Assembly: GCF_041146345.1 (NCBI RefSeq) | Contig: NW_027191408.1 | Span: forward strand, 930,001 to 994,000 | Reading direction: 5' to 3' | DNA length: 64,000 nucleotides | Source: Neodothiora populina | Lineage: Eukaryota | Part shown: positions 23,411 to 39,145 of the stretch, piece after piece | Position numbering within the stretch: position 1 is the first letter of the stretch | Layout of the letters: each line of letters begins with the position of its first letter | The notes under the pieces: generated by a model | What the model was told of the DNA's origin: nothing | Database searches by the model: none | What the model saw: the letters and a program-made list of their open reading frames with translations, nothing else | Program-made: the position numbers and the translations under genes

Positions 23411-23655
23411 GATATGAAGTGATGTACGTGAAGCAATTCATCTCGGACTAGAAGTAAACAAGAGGTGTGCATCAGTATACATCGTCGCAAGCCCAGAGAC
23501 GTTTCCGGCCGCAATTAGCATCGCGACTTCCACATTTGCAGCTCGATGCTGTCATTCATCATATCTCTCGATAAAATATATCACATCTTAGAACATCTCA
23601 CGCTCCAGCGTGTTGACGTTTCTCGACTCCCAGTCACTTTGTAAGTTATCCAAAT

Positions 23656-26600
23656 ATGCTCGCTGGTTTCCATGAAGCATTGACGACACCGTCTGGGTTG
23701 TGTGGTGTTTTCATCTTCTTCGTCGCCCATGCACTTGCTTTTCTCTGCCTCTTCAAGAAATATCCTATGCTATACTATCCTTCCCTATTCATGCTTGAGC
23801 CTGGCCGGTGTACACCAAGTGGCATTTTGCAGTGGGCCAAGCCACTTTTCACAGACGCAGATATTGTCCTCCAGCAACGAGGTCTAGACACTTACTTGTA
23901 TATACGCTATGTCAACATGCTTTACCGGATCATGTTGCCCATCACAATACTAGGAACGCCCGTTCTAATTCCGATGTACTACTTCGGTTCTAACGTTGAC
24001 CAACAAAAACGCATGGCAAGACTCACAGTCATCAACATCTCCACCCGGAATCGACCACTCATATTTGCAATTCTAGCCATTGGCACCCTTTTCGTCTTCT
24101 TTGTCTGCGTCTTACTTCGCATCGAACGCAACAATTACCTCCGGGTCCGAATAGCGCTTCTTGCTAATCCATATTATCGCATCAAACCTTCTTCTCGGAC
24201 TATATTAGTTCGAGATATACCTGATCATCAGTTGTCCACTTCAGCGCTCAGGGCGGTCTTTGGTGTTTCGACCGGAAGACTTGGCAACATTACGATAACC
24301 TTTTTCGAGGACTATTCTCGTCTTCACTCGCTTGAGCAGATAAGAGATCGACTGGTCGCGCAGCTCGAATATGGCGAGCTCTGGTACATTGGAGAAGCGC
24401 AAAGAGTATATCAGACTTCACATCTCAAGTCAGCAAGCGAATGGAACGAACTCGCCAGAGCAAAAATTGAGCCAGCGACGTCCGGTACGGCTACGTCAAG
24501 CCATATTGTACGAAGCTATACTGATAGTGCTTCGTCAGAAGTAAGACGATCCAATGCCAATCAACTTATTCGCGGAGACAAGCAGTCGCAGCCCTCAATG
24601 GTCGGAGCCCAGAGACGCTGTTTGGATCATGGACATGAGTCTGAGTCTACTACAGTACATAATCCTCATTGGAAGTCATGGTCATCACTTTCCATGGCCT
24701 CATCATCGAAGATTGAGAGCACTAGAAGCATCGGCTGTCATAGACGACACAAGCACAGTGACGAAATGCTCAACTATGGACATTGGGCTTATCACCAAGG
24801 AATGCAGCAAGATTATTGTGTCAGGACATTCGATGGAACTGAAGAAACTGCTCTTTACGCCCTTCAAAATCCATATTGTCCACTGAGAGCGCATTATGGG
24901 TATCCTAAGCTCTGGGCCACCCGACCTGGAAGATGTAGAAACCATCTTCACAGTCACGAGAAGGTCAATCTTTACCGCAGGTCCCTTTCACATCATGGGG
25001 TTGACGGCTGGAGCTCACCAGCCCAACACAGTCCCTTACTGAATTTTCTCGCGATAAGATCGACGAGCCAGCCGATGGATATGTTGCGATACAAAAGTGA
25101 GGTTGTGAATGCATCGAGAAGGGCACAAGTGAAGTGCAATGTAGCTTCGCCACGAGACTTGTATACATATGGACCATCTAAGGAGCATACCCGCCAAGTT
25201 GACTACTTTGGCAACGTGATCGACCCTGAAGGGGATATAGATTACGGCGACTGGTCCTTTGTCTTCGAAGCTCTGGTCGAGAAGTTGAATCTACAACAAA
25301 AGTTGCTTCCTCAGGTCTGGAGCACACCGAATACCCGCAACACCTCAGCTCGTCGAAGCCATTCACGGGCTTCTCTGAAGGATGTTCCAAAAACTCGTAG
25401 TGTTTCTTACCAAGAATTTGAAGCGGACTTCGGCCAACCTCCTACAGCACTCCCGCTGAGACTAAGCAGTAGTGGCAGGCAGCATTACATCAGACATATC
25501 TTGAAGCCGCGCAAGAGCCTTGCACTCGTGAACAAACAAATCAAGTCGTCTCAGTTAGAGTATCCGAGAAGGGTACCCCAATGTTTTGTTACTTTCGACT
25601 CTCCAGAACATGCTATCATAGCCAACGCTAAACGACTCCCGGCCACGATGGAATGCGCCACTGTAGAGATGGCACCCCATCCAGAGGACGTTCGATGGTA
25701 CGCAGTGGCTCACAGAGCGTGTCGGATACTGCCTTCTTGGCCTCGTCTCACAATCCATGCGTATCTGGCACTTGAGTCGTTTGCCTGGCTTGCTGATGCG
25801 GTCGACACGATAATAACCGAGATAGTTGTGAAGAGGATCAAGCACCCACCAATATGGCTTGTGTCACCCCTTTCGCCCATCTGGGGAATAGGCCTGAACC
25901 TCTACATAAACGTAATTATCACATTCACTAGCAGACTCTTACAGTGGTTGCTAGAGTTCAGATCGCCTGGCGAGTTCATACCAGCATCCAGAGCTGAGTT
26001 ACACGTCCGAGCGCAGTGGATGGTCTTATTCTGGACTCTCGCCTCACCGATTGGAACAGGTAAAAGTCCATCTATCTGCTTGCATCAAGACACGAAGAAG
26101 ATGCTGCTTGGACTGATCATCATTGGTAATGGTGCTTGTTTCTACCTCTTCGTCCAGGCAATGCAGGCTACAGTGTATATATGTCTTAAGCCCTCTGAGC
26201 TCTTGATACGCCTTGTAGCGCCTCCTGCTTTGACGCCGAGAAATGTCTTTCGCGAGAACACGCGGATAGTCCGGGTCGAATGGACATCTGCATATCTGTC
26301 TGTTTCGGTACCATTAATTGTTGGGCTGTGGTTAGGCCTCTCGACCCCGTTGATGCTACCCGTCTCCTGCGTATCAATGTTCATGGTGTCAATGAGCCAA
26401 CGGTACTCGGTCCTCTACACTAGAGCGACAGAGCACGACACCAACGGCGCTAGCTTCAGAGCCGCACTTGGAAGTGTGTTCGTAGGCCTGTACCTACTCC
26501 TGACTACGCTCGGAATAAGTATAGCCGGGCTCACCAACGACGCGAGCGGTGAACGTTGGGCACCAGGACACATCGCACTGGTCATTCTATTGATGGTCTT

Positions 26601-27084
26601 TGTACGAACAGCAATCGAGCACATACAGTCGTGGAGAGCGATCGATTACGCCTTGCTCGAGCACTGTACAGAAACGCAAGAAGCCAAGGAGGAGCCCACA
26701 GAAGAGAACCCGAACAATATCGCGTCAACTACCATAGGAGACGATAGTGAAGGTGATACTGAAGACAGTGACGGTTCTTCACTCGATGGTCCGGTCACGC
26801 TTTTAGATCTCGAGCCGGAACAGCGCCGCATCCTCATTGAAAACGCATATAGACACCCTGGAGCAAAAGTCAAGGGTGGTCCGGCAGTTATTTGGATCCC
26901 GCAGGATTTTGCGGGCGTGAGTGAGACTGAAACTGCACGTACACGGGCGTTGTTTCCGGGTGATGAGGGCTTGCTGGTGCTGTCCGAGGGAGCAGCAGTT
27001 GGGTATGTAGGGGAATTCGTGGACAGGGCGATTGTCAGTGGGTACCCTCCTGATTGGAGCGAGTTTGATGAGATTGAGCTTTGA
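23656..27084 (+). CDS. Divergent OSCA/TMEM63/CSC1 (DUF221, RSN1/PHM7-like) channel-family membrane protein
   Basis: 1142-aa ORF with GLDTYLYIRY, SSRTILVRDIP, FVTF, APHPEDVRW, HDTNGASF and C-terminal AYRHP...VIWIPQD.GVSE, plus multiple hydrophobic helices. Confidence 0.8.
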   Translation: MLAGFHEALTTPSGLCGVFIFFVAHALAFLCLFKKYPMLYYPSLFMLEPGRCTPSGILQWAKPLFTDADIVLQQRGLDTYLYIRYVNMLYRIMLPITILGTPVLIPMYYFGSNVDQQKRMARLTVINISTRNRPLIFAILAIGTLFVFFVCVLLRIERNNYLRVRIALLANPYYRIKPSSRTILVRDIPDHQLSTSALRAVFGVSTGRLGNITITFFEDYSRLHSLEQIRDRLVAQLEYGELWYIGEAQRVYQTSHLKSASEWNELARAKIEPATSGTATSSHIVRSYTDSASSEVRRSNANQLIRGDKQSQPSMVGAQRRCLDHGHESESTTVHNPHWKSWSSLSMASSSKIESTRSIGCHRRHKHSDEMLNYGHWAYHQGMQQDYCVRTFDGTEETALYALQNPYCPLRAHYGYPKLWATRPGRCRNHLHSHEKVNLYRRSLSHHGVDGWSSPAQHSPLLNFLAIRSTSQPMDMLRYKSEVVNASRRAQVKCNVASPRDLYTYGPSKEHTRQVDYFGNVIDPEGDIDYGDWSFVFEALVEKLNLQQKLLPQVWSTPNTRNTSARRSHSRASLKDVPKTRSVSYQEFEADFGQPPTALPLRLSSSGRQHYIRHILKPRKSLALVNKQIKSSQLEYPRRVPQCFVTFDSPEHAIIANAKRLPATMECATVEMAPHPEDVRWYAVAHRACRILPSWPRLTIHAYLALESFAWLADAVDTIITEIVVKRIKHPPIWLVSPLSPIWGIGLNLYINVIITFTSRLLQWLLEFRSPGEFIPASRAELHVRAQWMVLFWTLASPIGTGKSPSICLHQDTKKMLLGLIIIGNGACFYLFVQAMQATVYICLKPSELLIRLVAPPALTPRNVFRENTRIVRVEWTSAYLSVSVPLIVGLWLGLSTPLMLPVSCVSMFMVSMSQRYSVLYTRATEHDTNGASFRAALGSVFVGLYLLLTTLGISIAGLTNDASGERWAPGHIALVILLMVFVRTAIEHIQSWRAIDYALLEHCTETQEAKEEPTEENPNNIASTTIGDDSEGDTEDSDGSSLDGPVTLLDLEPEQRRILIENAYRHPGAKVKGGPAVIWIPQDFAGVSETETARTRALFPGDEGLLVLSEGAAVGYVGEFVDRAIVSGYPPDWSEFDEIEL

Positions 27085-27245: not shown

Positions 27246-29429
27246 TCACGCACCGGGCGTAGCCTCCTTGATAGCCCTGAGCAAGTCCTTCAGCTCCTCG
27301 ACCTCCTTCCTCAACTCCCTGACCTCAATAAGAGTAGCATCAGTCTCGACGTTAGGCTTCGACTCCTCACACTTCTTGACCCAACCATCGCGTTCGAAGT
27401 CAAACTCTCCCTCAAGCTGCTCCCACTCCTCGACGGTGTCCTCGTCTTCCTCACCTCTGTTCCTGTTCCACTTGACTTTGCGCGCCACACGCACCTCGAG
27501 CGCCGCAGTGACGCACAACAGCGGCGAGTAAATGAAGCCCATGACGGCGTCGTTGAGGCGCTCGTACGTCGATCGGCTCATCCACCACTCAAAGGGCAGG
27601 ACCAGGAAGATGATCTCGATCAGGTTGAAGGGCGCGATGTAGACGTTTTCGTCGGGCGCGCGCACGAAGCGGATCGTCTTTTGGCTGAAGAGCGCCATGT
27701 ATTCGTCGATGGCGTCGTCGGTGATGTCCTCGTAGGCCGAGTTGTACAGCGCGATCAGGACGTTCAGGAGGACTGTTTTCCCATGTTGATTAGTTTGGTT
27801 CCGTTTCAATTCTTGTAGACCTCCCCCAAGAGAGACTGATTGGTTGTTTACTTACTGACGACGATAATGAAGTTAAAGACATAGTAGAGGATCAAACCGA
27901 AAGGAGGAGCGAAGTTGTCGAAGCCGTCAAAGTCGGGAGAGCCCAGCATGGCGTTGAGCATTTGCAGACTGACGAAACCGACATCATCAAGACTCGAGTC
28001 GACCTGGTCTAGACCGATAAAGGCCTGCAAGAAACCCACGAGCACGACGATGAGCAGCGCGAAGAAGATAAGCGATTCTTGCATCATGACTTTGAGAACG
28101 ACGAGCATGGCACCGAAGAAGCGGTAGCTATCGAGGTAAAGCAACAGGCGGCACCAGAACATTGGCGCCGAAAAGGCGAGGAAATTATAACTCAATGTGT
28201 TGAAGTAGATGCGCTTATCGTCGGCAATGGGGTGTGTGAGGGCAATCATGCGGGTGATGAAAGACACGGTCAGGAAAGCATACAGCGTGTTGTTGAACGT
28301 GTTCCAGAATCCGAGGTAGTATCTGCCCACTTTCCAAAATTTGGCGATCTCGTCGCAGATGAAACCCAGAGTAAAGATGTACAGAAGGCCTTCGACAACA
28401 TCGAGATCACCAGTAGGGTTGATGGTGTTGATGGCACCGGTATAGAGGGCAAGGAAAATGAAACTGAACAGAACCTGGGCAAAGTTTTGATACATCGGGA
28501 CACGCATGCGATCCGGATCGAAGTGAACCCAGTAGTTGCCCGAAGTCTTGTGCTTGTAGTCAATAAAACGACTTGGATCATCCTCGTCTTGTACAAGCCA
28601 GCCGCGCCATAAGTAAGATATACATTTCTGGTAGCCTGTTGGAAAGCATAGTCAGCTTTGAGTTGCTAGCCCATCATTTGGAATACGAGATACATACCGG
28701 AGCTTCCAATGACAGGCAGAACGTGCAGGTCAACTGCTCTTTCAATCACGTTCGCGGGCGGTGTGTCTTCCCCATCAACGACGATGCTATACCGCTTCAA
28801 CAAGACATCTCTCAGCAAATAAGTAATGTCTTCTTCCTCCTCGATGATCTTTCTGGCGAGGACCTCGCAAGCCACCGCTCTGACAGCATGCAGGTCCGCA
28901 TCCCACAGCTCTAGCATCGCTTGCTTCTTGAACCATTTCTTGCAGATGAGCAAACAGAATACCACGCATGCACTGTAATCCGGATTGTCTGACGCGTCAA
29001 GGTTTCCGGGATTGTTCAGTTTGCCTGCTGACTTGGCTGTCGCGACTACCGCCGGAGTGATGATGTTCGAATGCGCCGCTGTGACGCGCGACTCTTCCAG
29101 CTCACATGGCACAACCTGCTCGATCTGATGCTTCAGACGTAGAGCTATGCGCGTGACTTCACGTGCCGGGATTGCACTTTGAAAGTTATCATCATTATGC
29201 GTAGGAAGCACTAGAAGTGGTGTCAGAATCAGGTAGAGTCAAGCGGTGAGAGTGAGAGGAGGTTTAGTAACAGAGCACTTGACCAGACATGGGAGGTAGC
29301 AAGTCTGAAAATTACAGTTTGAAAGCATTGGATTTCTCTTTACTTACGCGCGCTGACTTCGTCTGCTAAGTGCCTAGAGCCATTACCGCGACGACTATCA
29401 AAGTCAAAGAGGCTTGTCCATTTCACCAT
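27246..29429 (-). CDS. YVC1: Vacuolar TRP-family cation channel, 4 exons
   Basis: RLKHQIEQVVPCE, RAVACE, AVDLH, RMRVPMYQN, ILLNVLIALYNSAY and RAPDENVYIAPFNLIE match fungal Yvc1/TRPY1. Confidence 0.93.
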
Positions 29430-30156: not shown

Positions 30157-32461
30157 TTACTTCGTAGGAATTGCATCAGCGGACACGCCAGCCTCATCGC
30201 GAGGAATGGAGATGCTAGAGCTTCGATTGGTGCGAGCTGCATTCATTTCCTCCTCGAGGCCCTTGAGCTTACCCAAGCGGGCGGTAGGTAGCCACTTCTC
30301 TTCAGGGGTAAACCACCAGGTCAAGACTGCGAAGATGGTGATGCTACCAAAAATGACAGGAGAGTAGTTGAAGTTTTCGCCAGTGACCGGGAACTCGAGT
30401 GGCGAGAACAGAACGGCAGCAAGAAACAGGTTCCAGACCATGGCAATGAAGTTCATGGGAAGAGACCAACGTCCTAGAGACCAGCTTGCTGACTTGAACT
30501 CGTTGGGAGTGACAAACACTCTTCCGAAACAGATAAGGGCGTAGGACATGATGGTAGGCACACCGGCAGCACTGACAAGCGAGGCGAAAGCCACGGGGGA
30601 AGGCAAGATCGTACAGAGCAGCAGCGCTGACACAGTGAGCATGACAGTGACAGCGTTGTTGGGCATCTTCTGATCATTGACTTTGCTGATCCAGCCGGAG
30701 AAAGGAAGGACACCGTCGCGCGCTACTGCCCAGATCAGGCGGGACGATGCCACTCCTGCTACTGTGGTGTTGAAGATGAGGCCGAGGATGCAGATAATCG
30801 TCATGAAGACATGACCTCCCTGGCCCATAGACATCGCGTAGATGCTGATGAATGGCTGTGGTGCGGCAAGATTATAGATAACGTCCAAGTCAGGCATGCA
30901 GAAGAGGAAAAGAATAACAACTGGGAATCCAAGCACAGCAGAGGTGACTGCTGACGAGAAAATGCCGCGAGCCGCTGTCGTGCTTGCATTCTGAGTCTCC
31001 TCGCTGATGTGTCCGCTAGCTTCGAAACCGACCAGTACACCGGCTGTCACATAGTATGAGAGCATCCAGTTCCATACCGGTGGGGCTCCAGTCTCGTTAT
31101 AGGTCTGAGTGAAAACAAACTCGGCAGATTGGAAGCCATACGACTTGGACACCGCGATAGGTAGCCAGATGATGTTAAGGAAGAAGTCAAGCATGATGAG
31201 TCCACTCGCAATACGAAAGATCAGCTTGTAATGCTTGGGGTTCAGATAGTTCATTCCGATGGAGATGAAGAGCATTGCTTCGGCAACTATCCATTGCACT
31301 GCTCTGAACTTGACATCGTTTACGTCGGTAGTAAAGTCAACGCCAAACACTGTTAATTCGGAGAGCAGGTAGTTGGCAGCACCTTGGGAGTTGGAGGCGA
31401 CGAATGTGGTCCATGCTGTAGTGGCCCACCATGCAACGATGAATCCAAAGAGTCGACCAAATTTGCGACCACCGGACTCGGCCGCCCAGAAATAGATGGA
31501 ACCTGCAGCGGGTAGTGCAGAGCAGATTTCGGCCAGGACTGCAGCAGTAATGAAGACGAAGATGCACGTAATGACGTAGCTCGACCTTGTTGGGGGTCAG
31601 CATCTGAGATCACAATAACACTGATTGGGCATGTTGCAATTTAGAGCACAATAGAGCTCAGGAACATGTCTATGTGCACCCCGGGAATACCCTCGCGTAT
31701 GGCTTGAGAGTGCATCATCAACAGAGACTTACCAGTACGCAGCTGGTCCGCCAGCGCCAACACCGATGGAGAAGGTCACACGAATACCTCCAACGAAGTA
31801 GAGTGCGGCTGGAAAAATCAGTATGCGAAGCTCGCAAAACGAATAAGGTCAGGCAAATTCAAAATACCGAAACTGGCCGCGAAGCTTTCAAAGAACTTCC
31901 ATTGCCGATGCAAAGACTACATTGTATCAGTATTGGCATTCTGAAATGCTCAATTAAGCGCACTCACTTGTTTGTAACCGAGTGCGTTCTGCACTGTGTC
32001 AATAAATTAATCAATCACAGGAAAGGGAGAAATCAAGAAAGGTCGATAATTCAGTCATGGCATCTCCTTCCGCGCTCATGAAAGCGATCAAGTTCAAGCG
32101 GTACTCTCTCAGCCCTTGCCATGGCATCGAATCTTCTTCTCAAAAAACTCGATGCCTAGCTCAGACGCCCGCGTGCAATGACTGTTGTTGGTTGTCGTAT
32201 TTTGCTGTTCTTGTTTGGATCTTTCATGGCCTACTTACCAGGTGCCATCGATTGAGCGCGTTGGAAGGATGTTTTGCTTGCCGGTAACGAAAATCGCCAT
32301 TTCGGGATCCCTTTTCATGTCGCCCTTACCAAGTAGCGCTCGTCTGAATCCATGCTGGATGTCTCCTCGAAGTTGCTTTGCAGCTGGTTTGTGGGCTTGA
32401 CTGCATTGTCGATGTCCACACCACTGGCGCGCGCTGTGCCGGAACGGAGCTTGGTCTGCAT
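30157..32461 (-). CDS. APC-superfamily permease (GABA/choline permease-like), probable thiamine or precursor transporter (Thi9-like); exons 32461-32330, 31988-31968, 31916-31868, 31808-31733, 31585-30157; 568 aa
   Basis: Spliced product has DERYL|NALGYKQ|SLHR, GGPAAYW, LAEICSALPAAGSIYFW, GFEASGHISEET and SRLIWAVARDGVLPFS. The substrate is inferred from the intronic TPP aptamer. Confidence 0.9.
32052..32184 (-). promoter_or_regulatory. TPP riboswitch aptamer in intron 1 of the permease
   Basis: Minus strand shows P1 CAGTCATTGCA/TGCCATGACTG, P2 GCGG/CCGC, a long P3 extension GGCATCGAGTTTTTT/AGAAGATTCGATGCC, J3/2 GGCTGAGA, TTGAACTTGAT, P5 CGCTT-TCAT-GAGCG and CGGAAGG. All conserved TPP core elements are present in order. 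Confidence 0.93.
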
Positions 32462-33372: not shown

Positions 33373-35951
33373 ATGCCGCAAAGCACTTGTGATATACCAA
33401 GATTGGTTATGGATTGTCAACCTCCCCCTTCAGACTCTAGTCGCACCGCGATAGTAGGCAAAGATGACCTCAATATAGGTGACATCGGTTCTGTGCGACA
33501 TGCGTGGACCGAGAGACCTGGGTTGTCAGGAGTAGGAGCCTATCGAAGCTCTACAGAGCGCAGGACGTCTCTGACCCGGGAATCGAGCAAAATTTTGTGG
33601 AAGTTTAAGCTTCGACCCTGGGACGATGATCAGGAGAGAGACTGGTGGTTCGCGGGAACGGCGATTCCGTAAATCAGATACCTCGTAGCATCTCATAAGC
33701 CAAAGCTAACCATTGACTAGCTTGCTCGCTGCAACTCTGGGACCTCTCGCAAACGTGCTTTCAATAGCAGCACTTGTTACTTATTGGCGCATGTGTTTGA
33801 TAGATGGCGTAGATCCTGCGACATGCCCATCGATCGGGGTTGATACATTGCTCGCAGAATTATATGGACATACCTTTGAGGATCCCAAGTGGTAAGCCAT
33901 CGCAGTTGCATCAGGACCGATACACAACTGATCTTGAGTCAGGTGTTATGACCTGAATGTAGTATCTCTGGTTGCAGGATTTGTGGGTAACATATTCCTG
34001 TTGTTCAACTTCACAGGCCGAGTGAGATACATGATTTCCCTGCCTGTCACCATTTTGTCGTGGTACCTGGCAACAGGCATTGTAAGCTCTTCCATGTACA
34101 CTGATAAGCTTCGGTCTAATACCTATGCAGTTGATGGCAATTACAATATCAATGGATGTCTATGTGGCTCCTATGCGCCCTCAGCAGACGTACACACAGG
34201 GTTTTTGGTATGCTGTCATTGCAGCGGTGTTGTATATGGTCGCCTCTATGCTCCTCATGATCAACATGCTCGGCTATTTTCTTGGACACTATCCTCAACA
34301 ATTCAATCTCACAGATTCGCAGCGAACATTGATCCTCCAGACAATGCTGTTCTTTATTTGGCTTGCCGGAGGCGCGGGTGTGTTCTCTACGATCGAGACC
34401 AAATATGGCAATGGTGACATTCCTTGGTCTTATGTGAATGCCTTGTATTTCTGCGACGTTACTATCCTCACCGTCGGCTTCGGGGATCTGTACCCAACCA
34501 GCGACACAGGACGCGGACTGGTTTTCCCATATTCAGTGGGTGGTATTGTTATGCTAGGTCTGATGATCTCGAGCATCACCAAGTTCGCTTCGGAATTGGG
34601 ACAGGACAAGGTACTGCAGAAGCATGTGGAGAGATCTCGGACAAGAACGGTCGGCAGAGCTGTGACGACCTCGATTGAGCTTCAGGAACGCGAACGTGTT
34701 CTATCCTCAAGACCAGTCATACCAGGCCCTCTGCCTGTACCTCAACAAGGTACACCGCTCCGGATCATTGACAATAAAGAAGAATTGAAGAAACAAGCCG
34801 AGCAAGTCCCCTCGCATAGCCAATTGCGACATGGCTTGCGACGTATGACAGGACAGCTCACACCGTTCAAACCAGCAAAGAAATCGCGATTGTTACTGCT
34901 GCGAGAGGAGAAAGATCGGTTCGATGCCATGCGCAACATCCAGCGAAGCACAGCAAAGTGGAAACGATGGTATTCGCTTGTTCTGTCCGTCATGGCATTT
35001 GGAATCTTGTGGTGCATCGGCGCAGTCACCTTCTGGCAGGCAGAGAAGCGTGAGCAGGGCATTACCTATTTCCAGTCACTCTATCTCTGCTATGTATCTC
35101 TTCTCACCATCGGCTATGGCGATCTAGCTCCTAGGAGTAATGCCGGACGACCATTCTTCGTTGTATGGTCTCTCGTTGCCGTACCAACGATGACCATCCT
35201 CATCACTGAGATGAGCGATACCATCATTGGTGATTTCAAGAAGGCGACCTCGGGTGTCGCAGGTTTTACCGTATTGCCTGAACGTGGAGTCTGGCACAGG
35301 TTTCTAGACAGACAGCCTTGGCTTCTCAGAGTAATAGCCCGACGACGCGCGGACAAAGATGCCCGCTTGAGACTTCAGCGGGGCTTTGAGGTTGGCCCTG
35401 ATCCCGAAGACCCAGATGAAGGTCTCAATGAAGAAGCACCTACGCTGGCCACTTTAGCTGCCGAGGACGATGACGGGAATGGACCAGTGAAAAAGCCCAG
35501 TGATTTCGATCTTGCGCGAAGACTTGCTCGTGCAATTCGGCGCACCGCCAACGATCTGCGTGCTGACCCGCCTCGTAGGTATAGCTATGAGGAGTGGGTT
35601 GAACTTACTCGACTCATTCGCTTCACCTCACATAAAGGCCACGGTGAAGCACAAGACGAATCGGTAGAAGAAGGTCTCGTGGAATGGGATTGGATCGGCG
35701 AAGATTCACCTATGATGGCACAGGAAAGCGAGGCAGAGTTCGTACTGGATCGACTGTGTGAAAGCATGGGAAGATATATACGTCGGTTAGCATCCCCAGA
35801 AGATGACGATGACGACGAGGGGGGTGAACGACAGGCTCCTAGCAGTGCAGATGAAAATAGAGCTGTGGACAATGTGTTGGATGATGACAACGATGATACC
35901 ATCGTTGACGAGAGTAACGGATCCACTGCAGACGCGTCGAAAAGGCGTTAG
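33373..35951 (+). CDS. TOK1: Outward-rectifying two-pore-domain potassium channel, 4 exons (start uncertain: 33373 or 33409)
   Basis: Two pore signatures TVGFGD and TIGYGD. N-terminal WWFAGTAIP|LLAATLGPLAN and LTDSQRTLILQ are typical of TOK1. Confidence 0.93.
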
Positions 35952-37341: not shown

Positions 37342-39145
37342 ATGGCGAGACTTGGAGAGTATATTTCACGCTCTACAGTTAAGAAGGCTGGAGTACTTTT
37401 TGGTGCAATCCTCATACTCGGCCACTTACACTCACTTTCTTCTTTTGCTCTGCCTGGATTCTCAACTGGTATGAACAACCAAATCCCCATCCCCACTCCA
37501 TCATCGTTACTGGACTGAGAGGATCGCAATGTAGAAATACCATCACAGCTGCAGATTTCCAGGAAAACCGAGGTTGCTGCCGCCTTCCAGCATGCGTGGA
37601 CAGGATACTCAAACTATTGCTTTGGCCACGACACTTTGCGTCCCGTGACCAACACGTGCGAGGATGACTTTGGCGGATATGGCGCAACCGCCATTGATTC
37701 TCTGCCAACAGCCATCATGCTAGGTAACGAAGACGCAGTCCTGCAGATCCTTGGATTCATCGCCGCTTTGGACTTCAATGTGGTCAAGGGAGGTACTAAG
37801 ATTCAGGTCTTCGAAGTTACGATCCGACATTTTGCGGGCATGATATCGGCTTGGGACTTGCTCAATGGGCCGTTTTCTGGTATTGCCAAGGACGCGGATC
37901 TTCGGCAAGCTTTATACCACCAGATGATCAGGCTAGGGGATGTACTAAGCTGCGCTTTCAACACTCCCAGCGGTGTTCCCCGTGATTGGGTGGACCCCAA
38001 GTTGTGTGAGACTGACCAGGGCACTACGAACACTGTTGCTGGGGTTGGTACAATGATACTTGAGTTTGCCAGGTTATCAGACATTACAGGAAACGACACA
38101 TACGTCAAGCTGGCCCAGAAGGCAGAGGATTACCTGCTCAGACCCAGTCCTGCAGTCGGAGAGCCATATCCAGGACTTCTTGGCTCGTCTGTAAGTGTGG
38201 CGACCGGATCTATAGTGGACTCCAAAGGAAGCTGGGGTGCTTTCTCAGACTGTAAGGAATCTATGTAGCGTACATCCAGCAAACGATGGCAGACTTACGA
38301 AACTCAGCCTTCTACGAGTATCTCCTCAAAGCATACCTGTACAACAGCGATCAGTATGAATTCTACCTCGAGCGCTGGCTAGCGGCAGCAGACTCAACAA
38401 TCCAATACATCGGCTCGCACCCCTACGGCCACCCAGAGTGGACCTTGCTGCCCTACTGGGACGGAGCAAACTCCAAAAACCTAATGGAGTCTCTATCTTG
38501 GTTCGCAGGCGGCAACTTCATCCTCGGAGGAATGGTAACGCGCAACCAAACGCTAGTGGACTACGGACTCTCGATAGCAGATGCCGCAGGCGCAGCATAC
38601 AACATGACAGCGACAGGCCTAGGCGGCGAATTCGTAGCATGGACCACCGCGTCCTCCTGTGACGATGGCAACGCCGACGAATCCACCTGCGACCCGAGCA
38701 ATTCGTTCCGCAGCTCCGATACTAAGTTCAGACTGCGACCCGAGGTGCTGGAGACGTGGTATTACGCCTACCGAGCGACGCGGGACCCAAAGTATAGAGA
38801 GTGGTCGTGGAGCGCGTTCAGCGCCATCAATCAGCACTGTCGGACGGAGTCTGGATTCAGCGCCATCAGGGACGTCATGGCGGAAGATGGCGGCGGAAAG
38901 ATAGACGTGCAAGAGAGCTTTGTGTTTGCCGAAGTGATGAAGTACGTGTATCTGATCCATTTAGAGGTGAGTAGTTGTAAATCTTGACTTTTCTCCCGGG
39001 CGATATTTGAGAATCAATGCTTACTCTGGTCGTCTAGGATCATAACACCCGGTTTCAAGTCCAGGATAGTCGCTCCGGAGCGAAAAATACTTGGGTCTTC
39101 AATACCGAGGCTCACCCCTTTCGTGTCGCGGGTCCACCAGTGTAG
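37342..39145 (+). CDS. Class I alpha-1,2-mannosidase, glycoside hydrolase family 47, 4 exons
   Basis: AFQHAWTGY...GHDTLRP, VFEVTIR, DSFYEY, LRPEVLE, QESFVFAEVMKY and FNTEAHP. Hydrophobic N-terminal signal or anchor. Confidence 0.93.

Follow-up and report, generated by a model that had tools for sequence, protein, structure and literature searches.

The 64,000-nt stretch of the Neodothiora populina genome analyzed here (contig NW_027191408.1, positions 930,001 to 994,000, hereafter the window) carries on its minus strand a five-exon permease gene whose first intron contains a thiamine pyrophosphate (TPP) aptamer. The aptamer, at 32183-32052, is a genuine, full-length TPP aptamer, and ligand binding is predicted from its sequence. 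Our preferred interpretation, to which we assign a probability of roughly 65%, is that it belongs to a functional TPP riboswitch of the THI9/amino-acid-transporter group, which would choose the 5' splice site of intron 1 and act as an OFF switch; we infer its ligand dependence, the direction of switching and the substrate of the transporter.

To our knowledge, no riboswitch class other than the TPP class is known in eukaryotes. The groups linked to transporters are the least studied, and the THI9/amino-acid-transporter group and the intronic arrangement termed Type III appear in published accounts as never bench-tested (PMC5997356, PMC5882874). The locus and its 51 relatives offer a ready-made experimental system. 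The 341-nt intron has both a weak donor and a strong one, compensatory variants of a defined competitor helix occur naturally, and the ON and OFF mRNAs are predicted to differ by 91 nt. For fungal physiology, the locus points to a vitamin-B1-repressed uptake route in Dothideomycetes.

A TPP aptamer in the first intron of a permease gene

The host gene is laid out as follows, in window coordinates; identifiers beginning with L and P are ours for loci and proteins, respectively.

32461-30157, minus strand: host gene, five exons; spliced model of 132 + 21 + 49 + 76 + 1426 nt = 568 codons
32461-32330, minus strand: exon 1, with ATG at 32461 and 44 codons ending ...DERYL; equals the N terminus of P0001
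32329-31989, minus strand: intron 1, 341 nt, GTAAGG ... CAG
31988-31968, minus strand: exon 2, a 21-nt micro-exon encoding NALGYKQ
31916-31868, 31808-31733 and 31585-30160 (stop codon to 30157), minus strand: exons 3 to 5, APC permease body

The spliced 568-codon model is identical (100%) to P0001, which NCBI lists as 'hypothetical protein AAFC00_002266 [Neodothiora populina]'. Its last exon encodes an AA_permease_2 domain (PF13520, E 2.6e-50), which makes the product an APC transporter and bears out an initial annotation of this DNA that had placed the aptamer in a coding-region intron of an amino-acid permease. The PF13520 match is also consistent with the hosts of the THI9 group, elsewhere catalogued as TPPsw-AA. 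The same annotation had contrasted the 341-nt intron with introns of 50-70 nt as the usual size; this holds for two of the remaining introns in the gene (51 and 59 nt) and fails for the third (147 nt).

Within intron 1, the aptamer is composed of the following elements.

32183-32052, minus strand: TPP aptamer, defined by the RF00059 match, the orthologue covariance model, the fold and the alignment
32182-32174 with 32062-54, minus strand: P1
32172-69 with 32101-098, minus strand: P2
32166-32112, minus strand: long P3
32112-07, minus strand: CTGAGA block
32092-89 with 32070-67, minus strand: P4
32086-83 with 32076-73, minus strand: P5
32082-77, minus strand: loop L5

When positions 31900-32400 (501 bases) were searched in E-value mode, the whole RF00059 model (positions 1-105) aligned to 32182-32047 with 41.7 bits and an E-value of 7e-07. 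This alignment and the predicted fold place all aptamer elements within 32329-31989 in the order that the initial annotation had given, and the aptamer ends 63 nt before the acceptor, where about 60 had been claimed. In the RF00059 search, which the annotation had named as a check, the whole model was matched, but the score falls short of the curated Rfam gathering score of 54.3 bits, and no match was found at the gathering threshold over the whole 64-kb window. The score is low because P3 carries a 44-nt insert and ten model positions belonging to the optional P3a hairpin are deleted; the upper-case consensus blocks are matched. Rescanning 20 aptamer-bearing loci with the Rfam model left 18 below the gathering threshold, and the two that passed, L031 (65.6 bits) and L026 (59.0 bits), have the shortest P3. 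The shortfall in the window therefore reflects the length of P3 and not the identity of the element. One of the three Neurospora crassa switches is reported to show the same sub-cut-off behavior (Donovan 2018, PMC5997356).

A covariance model built from orthologues scored 114.3 bits at 32183-32052, its sole match in the 64 kb. On its own, the 142-nt aptamer stretch folds as a three-way junction of P1 to P5 with a long P3, at a minimum free energy (MFE) of -54.4 kcal/mol (z -4.86) that none of 200 shuffles equaled. Its unpaired blocks (CUGAGA after P3; GA..C..UGAU and GCG around P4/P5) match the Rfam consensus and are invariant in 20 orthologues. Such conserved unpaired blocks of TPP aptamers contact the ligand. 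The structure also departs from the consensus in places. The L5 sequence, UUCAUG, lacks the RUAAUR motif typical of other fungal groups, P1 contains one U-C mismatch, and the innermost P4 pair is G-G, a position at which 29 of 45 family members have no standard pair. The absence of the usual L5 motif is a trait of the THI9/TPPsw-AA group (PMC11683625).

Conservation and covariation of the aptamer

Scanning metagenome contigs with an alignment of 18 homologues yielded 80 loci encoding relatives of the permease. In 24 of these, a strict motif for the aptamer core was present 5' of the permease exon. We aligned 20 aptamers with MAFFT, drew the five helices by hand and built the covariance model from that alignment. 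Applied to the window and the 80 loci, the model gave a single match per source, in the window and in 51 of the 80 loci, always on the strand of the gene. Every locus with 600 nt or more of upstream DNA and a protein 66% or more identical to that of the window carried the aptamer (35/35), as did 7 of 18 loci with less than 66% identity. A further 27 loci had too little upstream DNA to judge, and the aptamer was still seen in nine of these.

The helices covary. In the model-fitted alignment of 45 distinct sequences, 93.4% of cells were paired and 16 of 26 pairs showed compensatory changes, compared with 4 to 9 in controls with slid partners; none of 500 shuffles reached 16. Because a model-fitted alignment leans towards structure, this count is to be read beside that from the unfitted MAFFT alignment of 20 sequences, which points in the same direction: 88.4% of cells were paired, and 12 of 26 pairs had changed on both sides, versus 2 to 9 with slid partners.

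These results bear on two skeptical explanations. The first, that the sequence looks like a TPP aptamer only by chance, could appeal to the missing whole-window hit at the Rfam gathering threshold. We regard it as refuted by the E-value of 7e-07 across the full RF00059 model, by homologous aptamers at the same place in 51 related loci, two of which exceed the Rfam cut-off, and by the covariation. The initial annotation's call of a real TPP aptamer is upheld by the same RF00059 match, together with the 114.3-bit score, the covariation and the stability of the fold. The second explanation, that the aptamer is a decaying relic with no regulatory role, would be in keeping with its sub-threshold RF00059 score, its P1 mismatch and its non-canonical L5, and loss of function has been speculated for thi9-type switches (PMC8786325). 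Relics do not covary, however, and compensatory changes are seen at 16 of 26 pairs; the aptamer is also kept in all 35 close orthologues, and the second donor, the stop codon and the competitor element described below are all conserved. We consider a relic very improbable.

In one sub-lineage (L003, L005 and L022), TTGAGA replaces CTGAGA, and P2 and P5 are altered as well. The block concerned contacts the ligand and normally does not vary; even so, these three loci still score 57-67 bits with the family model.

Two donors and an intervening stop codon

The splicing signals of intron 1 are arranged around the aptamer.

32324-32329, minus strand: S1, the productive 5' splice site, GTAAGG; weak, with no match to GT[AG][AT]GT
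32315-32317, minus strand: in-frame TGA, 4 codons past exon 1; read when the S1-S2 segment is retained
32233-32238, minus strand: S2, the alternative 5' splice site, GTAAGT; consensus, 91 nt downstream of S1
31989-32051, minus strand: pyrimidine-rich intron tail and 3' splice site (CAG 31991-31989)

The end of exon 1 could be located in 43 of 52 sources, the DNA being absent in the other nine. In all 43, S1 lies at the identical codon and is followed by an in-frame stop within 3-51 nt. Among 39 distinct introns, none has the consensus GT[AG][AT]GT at S1, whereas 37 have a consensus second donor between S1 and the aptamer (the exceptions being L013, with GTAAGA, and L031, which lacks one). In each of the 38 introns with an S2, the stop comes first. 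The riboswitch intron measures 226-551 nt (median 350) across the 39, with 42-107 nt (median 63) between aptamer and acceptor; the corresponding values in the window are 341 and 63 nt. Conservation of the S1/stop/S2 order across relatives agrees with the view of the initial annotation that the intron is laid out for splicing control. One intron departs in size: in L013 (L013:2300-2560), the spacer between S2 and the aptamer is about 200 nt longer than in its neighbors and seemingly internally repetitive (GTGTC/GACAC-type words), and it may represent a small insertion within the riboswitch intron.

This layout corresponds to the Type III arrangement, described as an internal intron of 200-400 nt with donors S1 and S2, an in-frame stop between them and a predicted OFF outcome (Mukherjee 2018, PMC5882874, section 7). 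The window fits it in its 341-nt internal intron, its two donors with a stop between, its acceptor just past the aptamer and its predicted OFF direction. According to the same source, Type III had yet to be observed experimentally and resembles Type I, where S2 is masked by the aptamer (PMC5882874). In the window, in contrast, S2 is not the site of the conserved complementarity; this is found in an element 5' of S2, whose partner is the aptamer 3' strand.

An intron-free contig joined at S2

One locus of the 80, L012, has joined exons. It is a 2086-nt contig that encodes a protein 72% identical to P0001 and is sister to the genomic locus L025. L012 is collinear with L025 (L025:2290-3010) up to the base before S2, then passes directly into exon 2 and continues through exons 3, 4 and 5 without any intron. 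It retains the 81-nt S1-S2 segment, including the GTA TGA stop. The contig extends about 110 nt upstream of the ATG and about 280 nt beyond the stop, a size that suits an mRNA assembly. Whichever its origin, L012 shows that a close relative has at some time made RNA spliced between S2 and the normal acceptor.

A probable competitor helix between the S1-S2 segment and the aptamer

The segment between S1 and S2 contains an element that we call alpha, complementary to a stretch of the aptamer, alpha prime.

32254-32289 (core 32271-32254), minus strand: alpha, complementary to the aptamer 3' strand; 41-76 nt downstream of S1
32053-32076, minus strand: alpha prime, the aptamer 3' strand (P5 3', P4 3', P1 3'); pairs inside the aptamer or with alpha
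32221-32228, minus strand: CATGAAAG, an 8-nt complement of the aptamer P5/L5 stretch CTTTCATG; just 3' of S2 and paired in the whole-intron MFE structure

In the window, the duplex of 32289-32254 with 32076-32053 has an energy of -23.7 kcal/mol (z -3.35, p 0.007). We compared the segment from S1 to the aptamer with the last 25 alignment columns of the aptamer in each relative, against 300 dinucleotide shuffles per pair, and the alpha-alpha prime duplex beat 95% of shuffles in 24 of 37 distinct pairs (mean z -2.65). Two controls gave no such signal: reversed alpha prime reached the threshold in 3/37 pairs (mean z -0.41) and a segment of the aptamer 5' side in 0/37 (mean z +0.46). In all but one of 36 pairs, the whole of alpha lay 5' of S2. 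Its 5' part tracks the lineage-specific sequence of the P1 3' strand, for example in L026, L054, L065 and L071, which is what maintained pairing predicts. A MAFFT alignment of the whole S1-to-aptamer regions aligns alpha too poorly for a column-wise count of covariation, so the argument for alpha is made from duplex energies against shuffles.

In the MFE structure of the whole intron (-102.4 kcal/mol, z -2.77), the alpha-alpha prime helix is present and P3 stays intact, while none of P1, P4 and P5 forms. Within the region enclosed by the helix, a small hairpin carries S2 in its loop.

Several further pairings were considered and rejected. An exact-match search of 25 sources found CATGAAAG only in the window and, at a different place, in L043; it is therefore not a conserved part of the switch. 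Pairing between the S1-proximal segment and the intron tail past the aptamer, which the MFE structure of the window had suggested, gave a mean z of -0.27, with 1/36 pairs at p<=0.05. Masking of a donor by free alpha in the TPP-bound state stood at chance level both for S1 (mean z 0.06, 1/37) and for S2 (mean z 0.56, 1/36).

A model for splice-site choice

Taken together, these features suggest how the riboswitch might work. At low TPP, alpha prime would pair with alpha, and the aptamer would be kept from closing. The resulting helix would loop out S2 together with the 5' half of the aptamer and draw the weak S1 near the acceptor, and the entire 341-nt intron would be spliced out to yield the 568-aa transporter. 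At high TPP, the aptamer would close on its ligand and free alpha, and the consensus S2, being nearer the acceptor, would win. The 91-nt S1-S2 segment with its in-frame TGA would then be retained, so that translation would give a 48-residue peptide, and the S2-spliced mRNA would probably be a target of nonsense-mediated decay. The net outcome would be that uptake is turned off when the cofactor is plentiful.

Several points weigh against this model. The aptamer has the shortcomings noted above, namely its score under the curated cut-off, its atypical L5, the U-C mismatch in P1 and the G-G pair in P4, and the speculation that thi9-type switches may be losing function concerns its group. The alpha test was not significant in 13 of the 37 pairs, which are related sequences and not independent trials, and the 36 pairs examined gave no support for further pairing, beyond alpha, between the S1 region and the intron tail. 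None of the 80 loci was an S1-spliced contig, and L012, whose size suits an assembled transcript, may instead be a processed pseudogene. With regard to the substrate, the database proteins named 'thi9' fall in a sister clade without the riboswitch (see below).

A different use of a real aptamer must also be weighed, in which it would control S1 or splicing overall, so that TPP mainly brings about intron retention, stop codons and decay in place of a shift to S2. There is precedent in Candida parapsilosis DUR31, where thiamin raised the level of unspliced RNA, a second donor was used with or without thiamin, and the authors suggested controlled access to the first donor (PMC5997356); the unspliced intron of the window would also meet the TGA at 32317-32315. 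Against this stand a consensus S2 kept in 37 of 39 distinct introns in which S1 is never consensus, the position of alpha between S1 and S2 in 35 of 36 pairs, and the S2-spliced molecule represented by L012, and the chance-level pairing of alpha with the S1 window counts against direct control at that donor. We judge this course improbable and favor donor choice by the alpha-alpha prime helix.

More tentatively, at slightly under even odds, we suggest a fuller picture: that the compact alpha-alpha prime looping is a short-range version of the N. crassa NCU01977 mechanism set in a Type III coding intron with a weak productive donor and a consensus decoy, that L012 is the first natural OFF-state mRNA, and that the riboswitch marks a transporter subfamily, including those of Dothideomycetes and Saitoella, distinct from the riboswitch-less proteins to which databases give the name Thi9.

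Relationship to known fungal riboswitches

Riboswitches on fungal transporter genes had been predicted before, as the initial annotation stated and as two surveys confirm (Donovan 2018, PMC5997356; Vargas-Junior 2024, PMC11683625). THI9 is one of five riboswitch-bearing fungal gene groups (Moldovan 2018, as cited in Donovan 2018, PMC5997356), and Thi9 orthologues in Taphrinomycotina, Pezizomycotina and Basidiomycetes are said to carry riboswitches that await experimental characterization (PMC5997356). According to Mukherjee 2018 (PMC5882874), the amino-acid-transporter group is common across Basidiomycota and does not occur in Ascomycota. Supplement 2 of Vargas-Junior 2024 (PMC11683625) catalogs 18 TPPsw-AA switches, six of them in Ascomycota, and among its intronic 'Type III' cases are Aureobasidium pullulans, Hortaea werneckii and Verruconis gallopava; the group is described there as lacking the usual L5 motif (PMC11683625). 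The window shares with this group an APC-type 'amino acid' permease as host, an aptamer in an internal intron and an L5 without that motif. Compared by eye only, the three entries just named (supplement 3, PMC11683625) have conserved blocks like those of the window, and for A. pullulans and V. gallopava the blocks agree in order and wording. N. populina is missing from these lists. The published A. pullulans, H. werneckii and V. gallopava entries therefore mean that the N. populina switch joins a known kind: the THI9/amino-acid-transporter riboswitch class is already known, and this locus is an added case. Neodothiora populina belongs to Dothideales, the same order as A. pullulans.

The mechanistic detail, that is, the alpha pairing and the S2 isoform, may be new for the THI9 group. 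Neither is mentioned for this group in the accessible portions of the riboswitch literature cited here, Moldovan 2018 excepted, and no search was aimed at alpha pairing.

A close mechanistic parallel is the DUR31-type riboswitch of N. crassa NCU01977. Its alpha element sits about 50 nt past S1, the P1 nucleotides with which it pairs are about 530 nt away, and the internal donors are looped out (Li and Breaker 2013, PMC3597705). In both cases alpha is found a few tens of nucleotides past S1, its partners in the aptamer include the P1 3' strand, an internal donor is looped out, TPP competes with the pairing (as we propose here), and the alternative products contain stop codons. The two differ in scale, with about 180 nt separating alpha from alpha prime here compared to about 530 nt and an intron of 341 nt compared to 650-900 nt; in the number of alternative donors, one here versus several; in the extent of alpha prime, which here also spans P4 3' and P5 3'; and in the host, an APC permease here and a urea/DUR3-family transporter in N. 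crassa. Because of the 341-nt intron, the separation of about 180 nt and the APC permease host, the window switch is not a member of the NCU01977 kind (Type II), although it resembles it in its working.

Donor competition is likewise found in N. crassa NMT1 and THI4, where two 5' splice sites compete, the proximal one is used with TPP, and P4/P5 nucleotides take part in the ligand-free pairing (PMC3597705). In NMT1, TPP binding unmasks the proximal donor, and NMT1 and NCU01977 are both OFF switches (PMC3597705). Unlike the window intron, which interrupts coding sequence, those of NMT1 and THI4 lie in the 5' untranslated region and act via upstream open reading frames, and their aptamers pair with the splice-site region itself (PMC3597705), whereas pairing of alpha with the S2 window here is at chance level.

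The transporters that carry the switch and their substrate

The distribution of the riboswitch follows the phylogeny of the permease. An unrooted protein tree of 72 rows, from which nine loci with fewer than 300 aligned residues had been left out, was split with a Shimodaira-Hasegawa-like approximate likelihood ratio test (SH-aLRT) support of 100 into 58 rows, of which 44 have the aptamer and 14 were not assessable, and 14 rows, of which 11 lack it and 3 were not assessable. A second tree combined 24 of those rows with 20 named database proteins picked from 120, and S. pombe Thi9 was left out of it. The aptamer side comprises Dothideomycetes (Hortaea, Aureobasidium, Saccharata, Myriangium and sp. 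NU459), an Anthostomella entry and Saitoella, a member of Taphrinomycotina that is placed in the riboswitch clade. On the other side are Eurotiomycetes, Leotiomycetes, Xylona, Sarea and Fusarium. The Aureobasidium protein P0045 clusters with the riboswitch-bearing locus L025. All four proteins labeled 'Thiamine transporter thi9' (P0090, P0097, P0117 and P0120) fall in the riboswitch-less sister clade. With respect to orthology with S. pombe Thi9, the placements of Saitoella and of these four proteins pull in opposite directions. Loss of the switch in one orthologue lineage and an old duplication are both possible explanations of the clade pattern, and either the 'thi9' labels may sit on the wrong clade or the labeled clade may have lost its switch. 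This matters for annotation, as the host gene itself goes by 'hypothetical' or 'amino acid transporter' while 'thi9' is attached to proteins without a switch. One entry on the aptamer side, P0016 from Anthostomella pinea (Sordariomycetes), nests within the Dothideomycete riboswitch clade beside Hortaea with a support of 92, which could reflect assembly contamination, horizontal transfer or misplacement.

The cargo of the transporter is most likely thiamine or a thiamine precursor, by analogy: the gene carries a TPP riboswitch, and S. pombe Thi9 is, like the window's protein, an APC permease related to amino-acid transporters and the only characterized thiamine carrier of that family (Vogl 2008, via PMC5997356 and PMC12329505). 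The 'thi9'-labeled proteins belong to the sister clade that has no riboswitch. The switch could instead work as described on a transporter of something other than thiamine, such as the precursors hydroxymethylpyrimidine (HMP) or thiazole, a phosphorylated form, or an amino compound used via TPP enzymes. Mukherjee 2018 (PMC5882874) argues that no single ligand class can be assigned to such genes. The protein itself is an AA_permease_2 member of generic type, its relatives bear database names such as 'amino acid transporter', 'related to GABA transport protein' or 'hypothetical', and the position of the 'thi9' names in the tree agrees with a different cargo. TPP riboswitches on transporters are generally tied to thiamine-related cargo, which counts against this alternative. 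Both of the riboswitch-bearing fungal transporter groups tested, Dur31 and S. pombe Thi9, carry thiamin (PMC5997356). We see a cargo other than thiamine as unlikely, while giving it serious weight, and retain thiamine or a precursor of it as the expected substrate.

Neighboring genes and gene models

The genes adjoining the permease in the window include none related to thiamine. They are the following.

27848-29238, minus strand: TRPY1/YVC1-like calcium channel
23617-27084, plus strand: RSN1/CSC1-like 10-transmembrane protein
34086-35951, plus strand: two-pore-type potassium channel
37519-38987, plus strand: GH47 mannosidase

The riboswitch intron and the micro-exon seem to trip up gene predictors. 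Micro-exon 2 (NALGYKQ, 31968-31988) is conserved, and it is missing from the annotated isoform P0006. In Aureobasidium vineae, the model P0045 begins only within the first membrane helix, and several relatives have truncated gene models whose start lies past the riboswitch intron.

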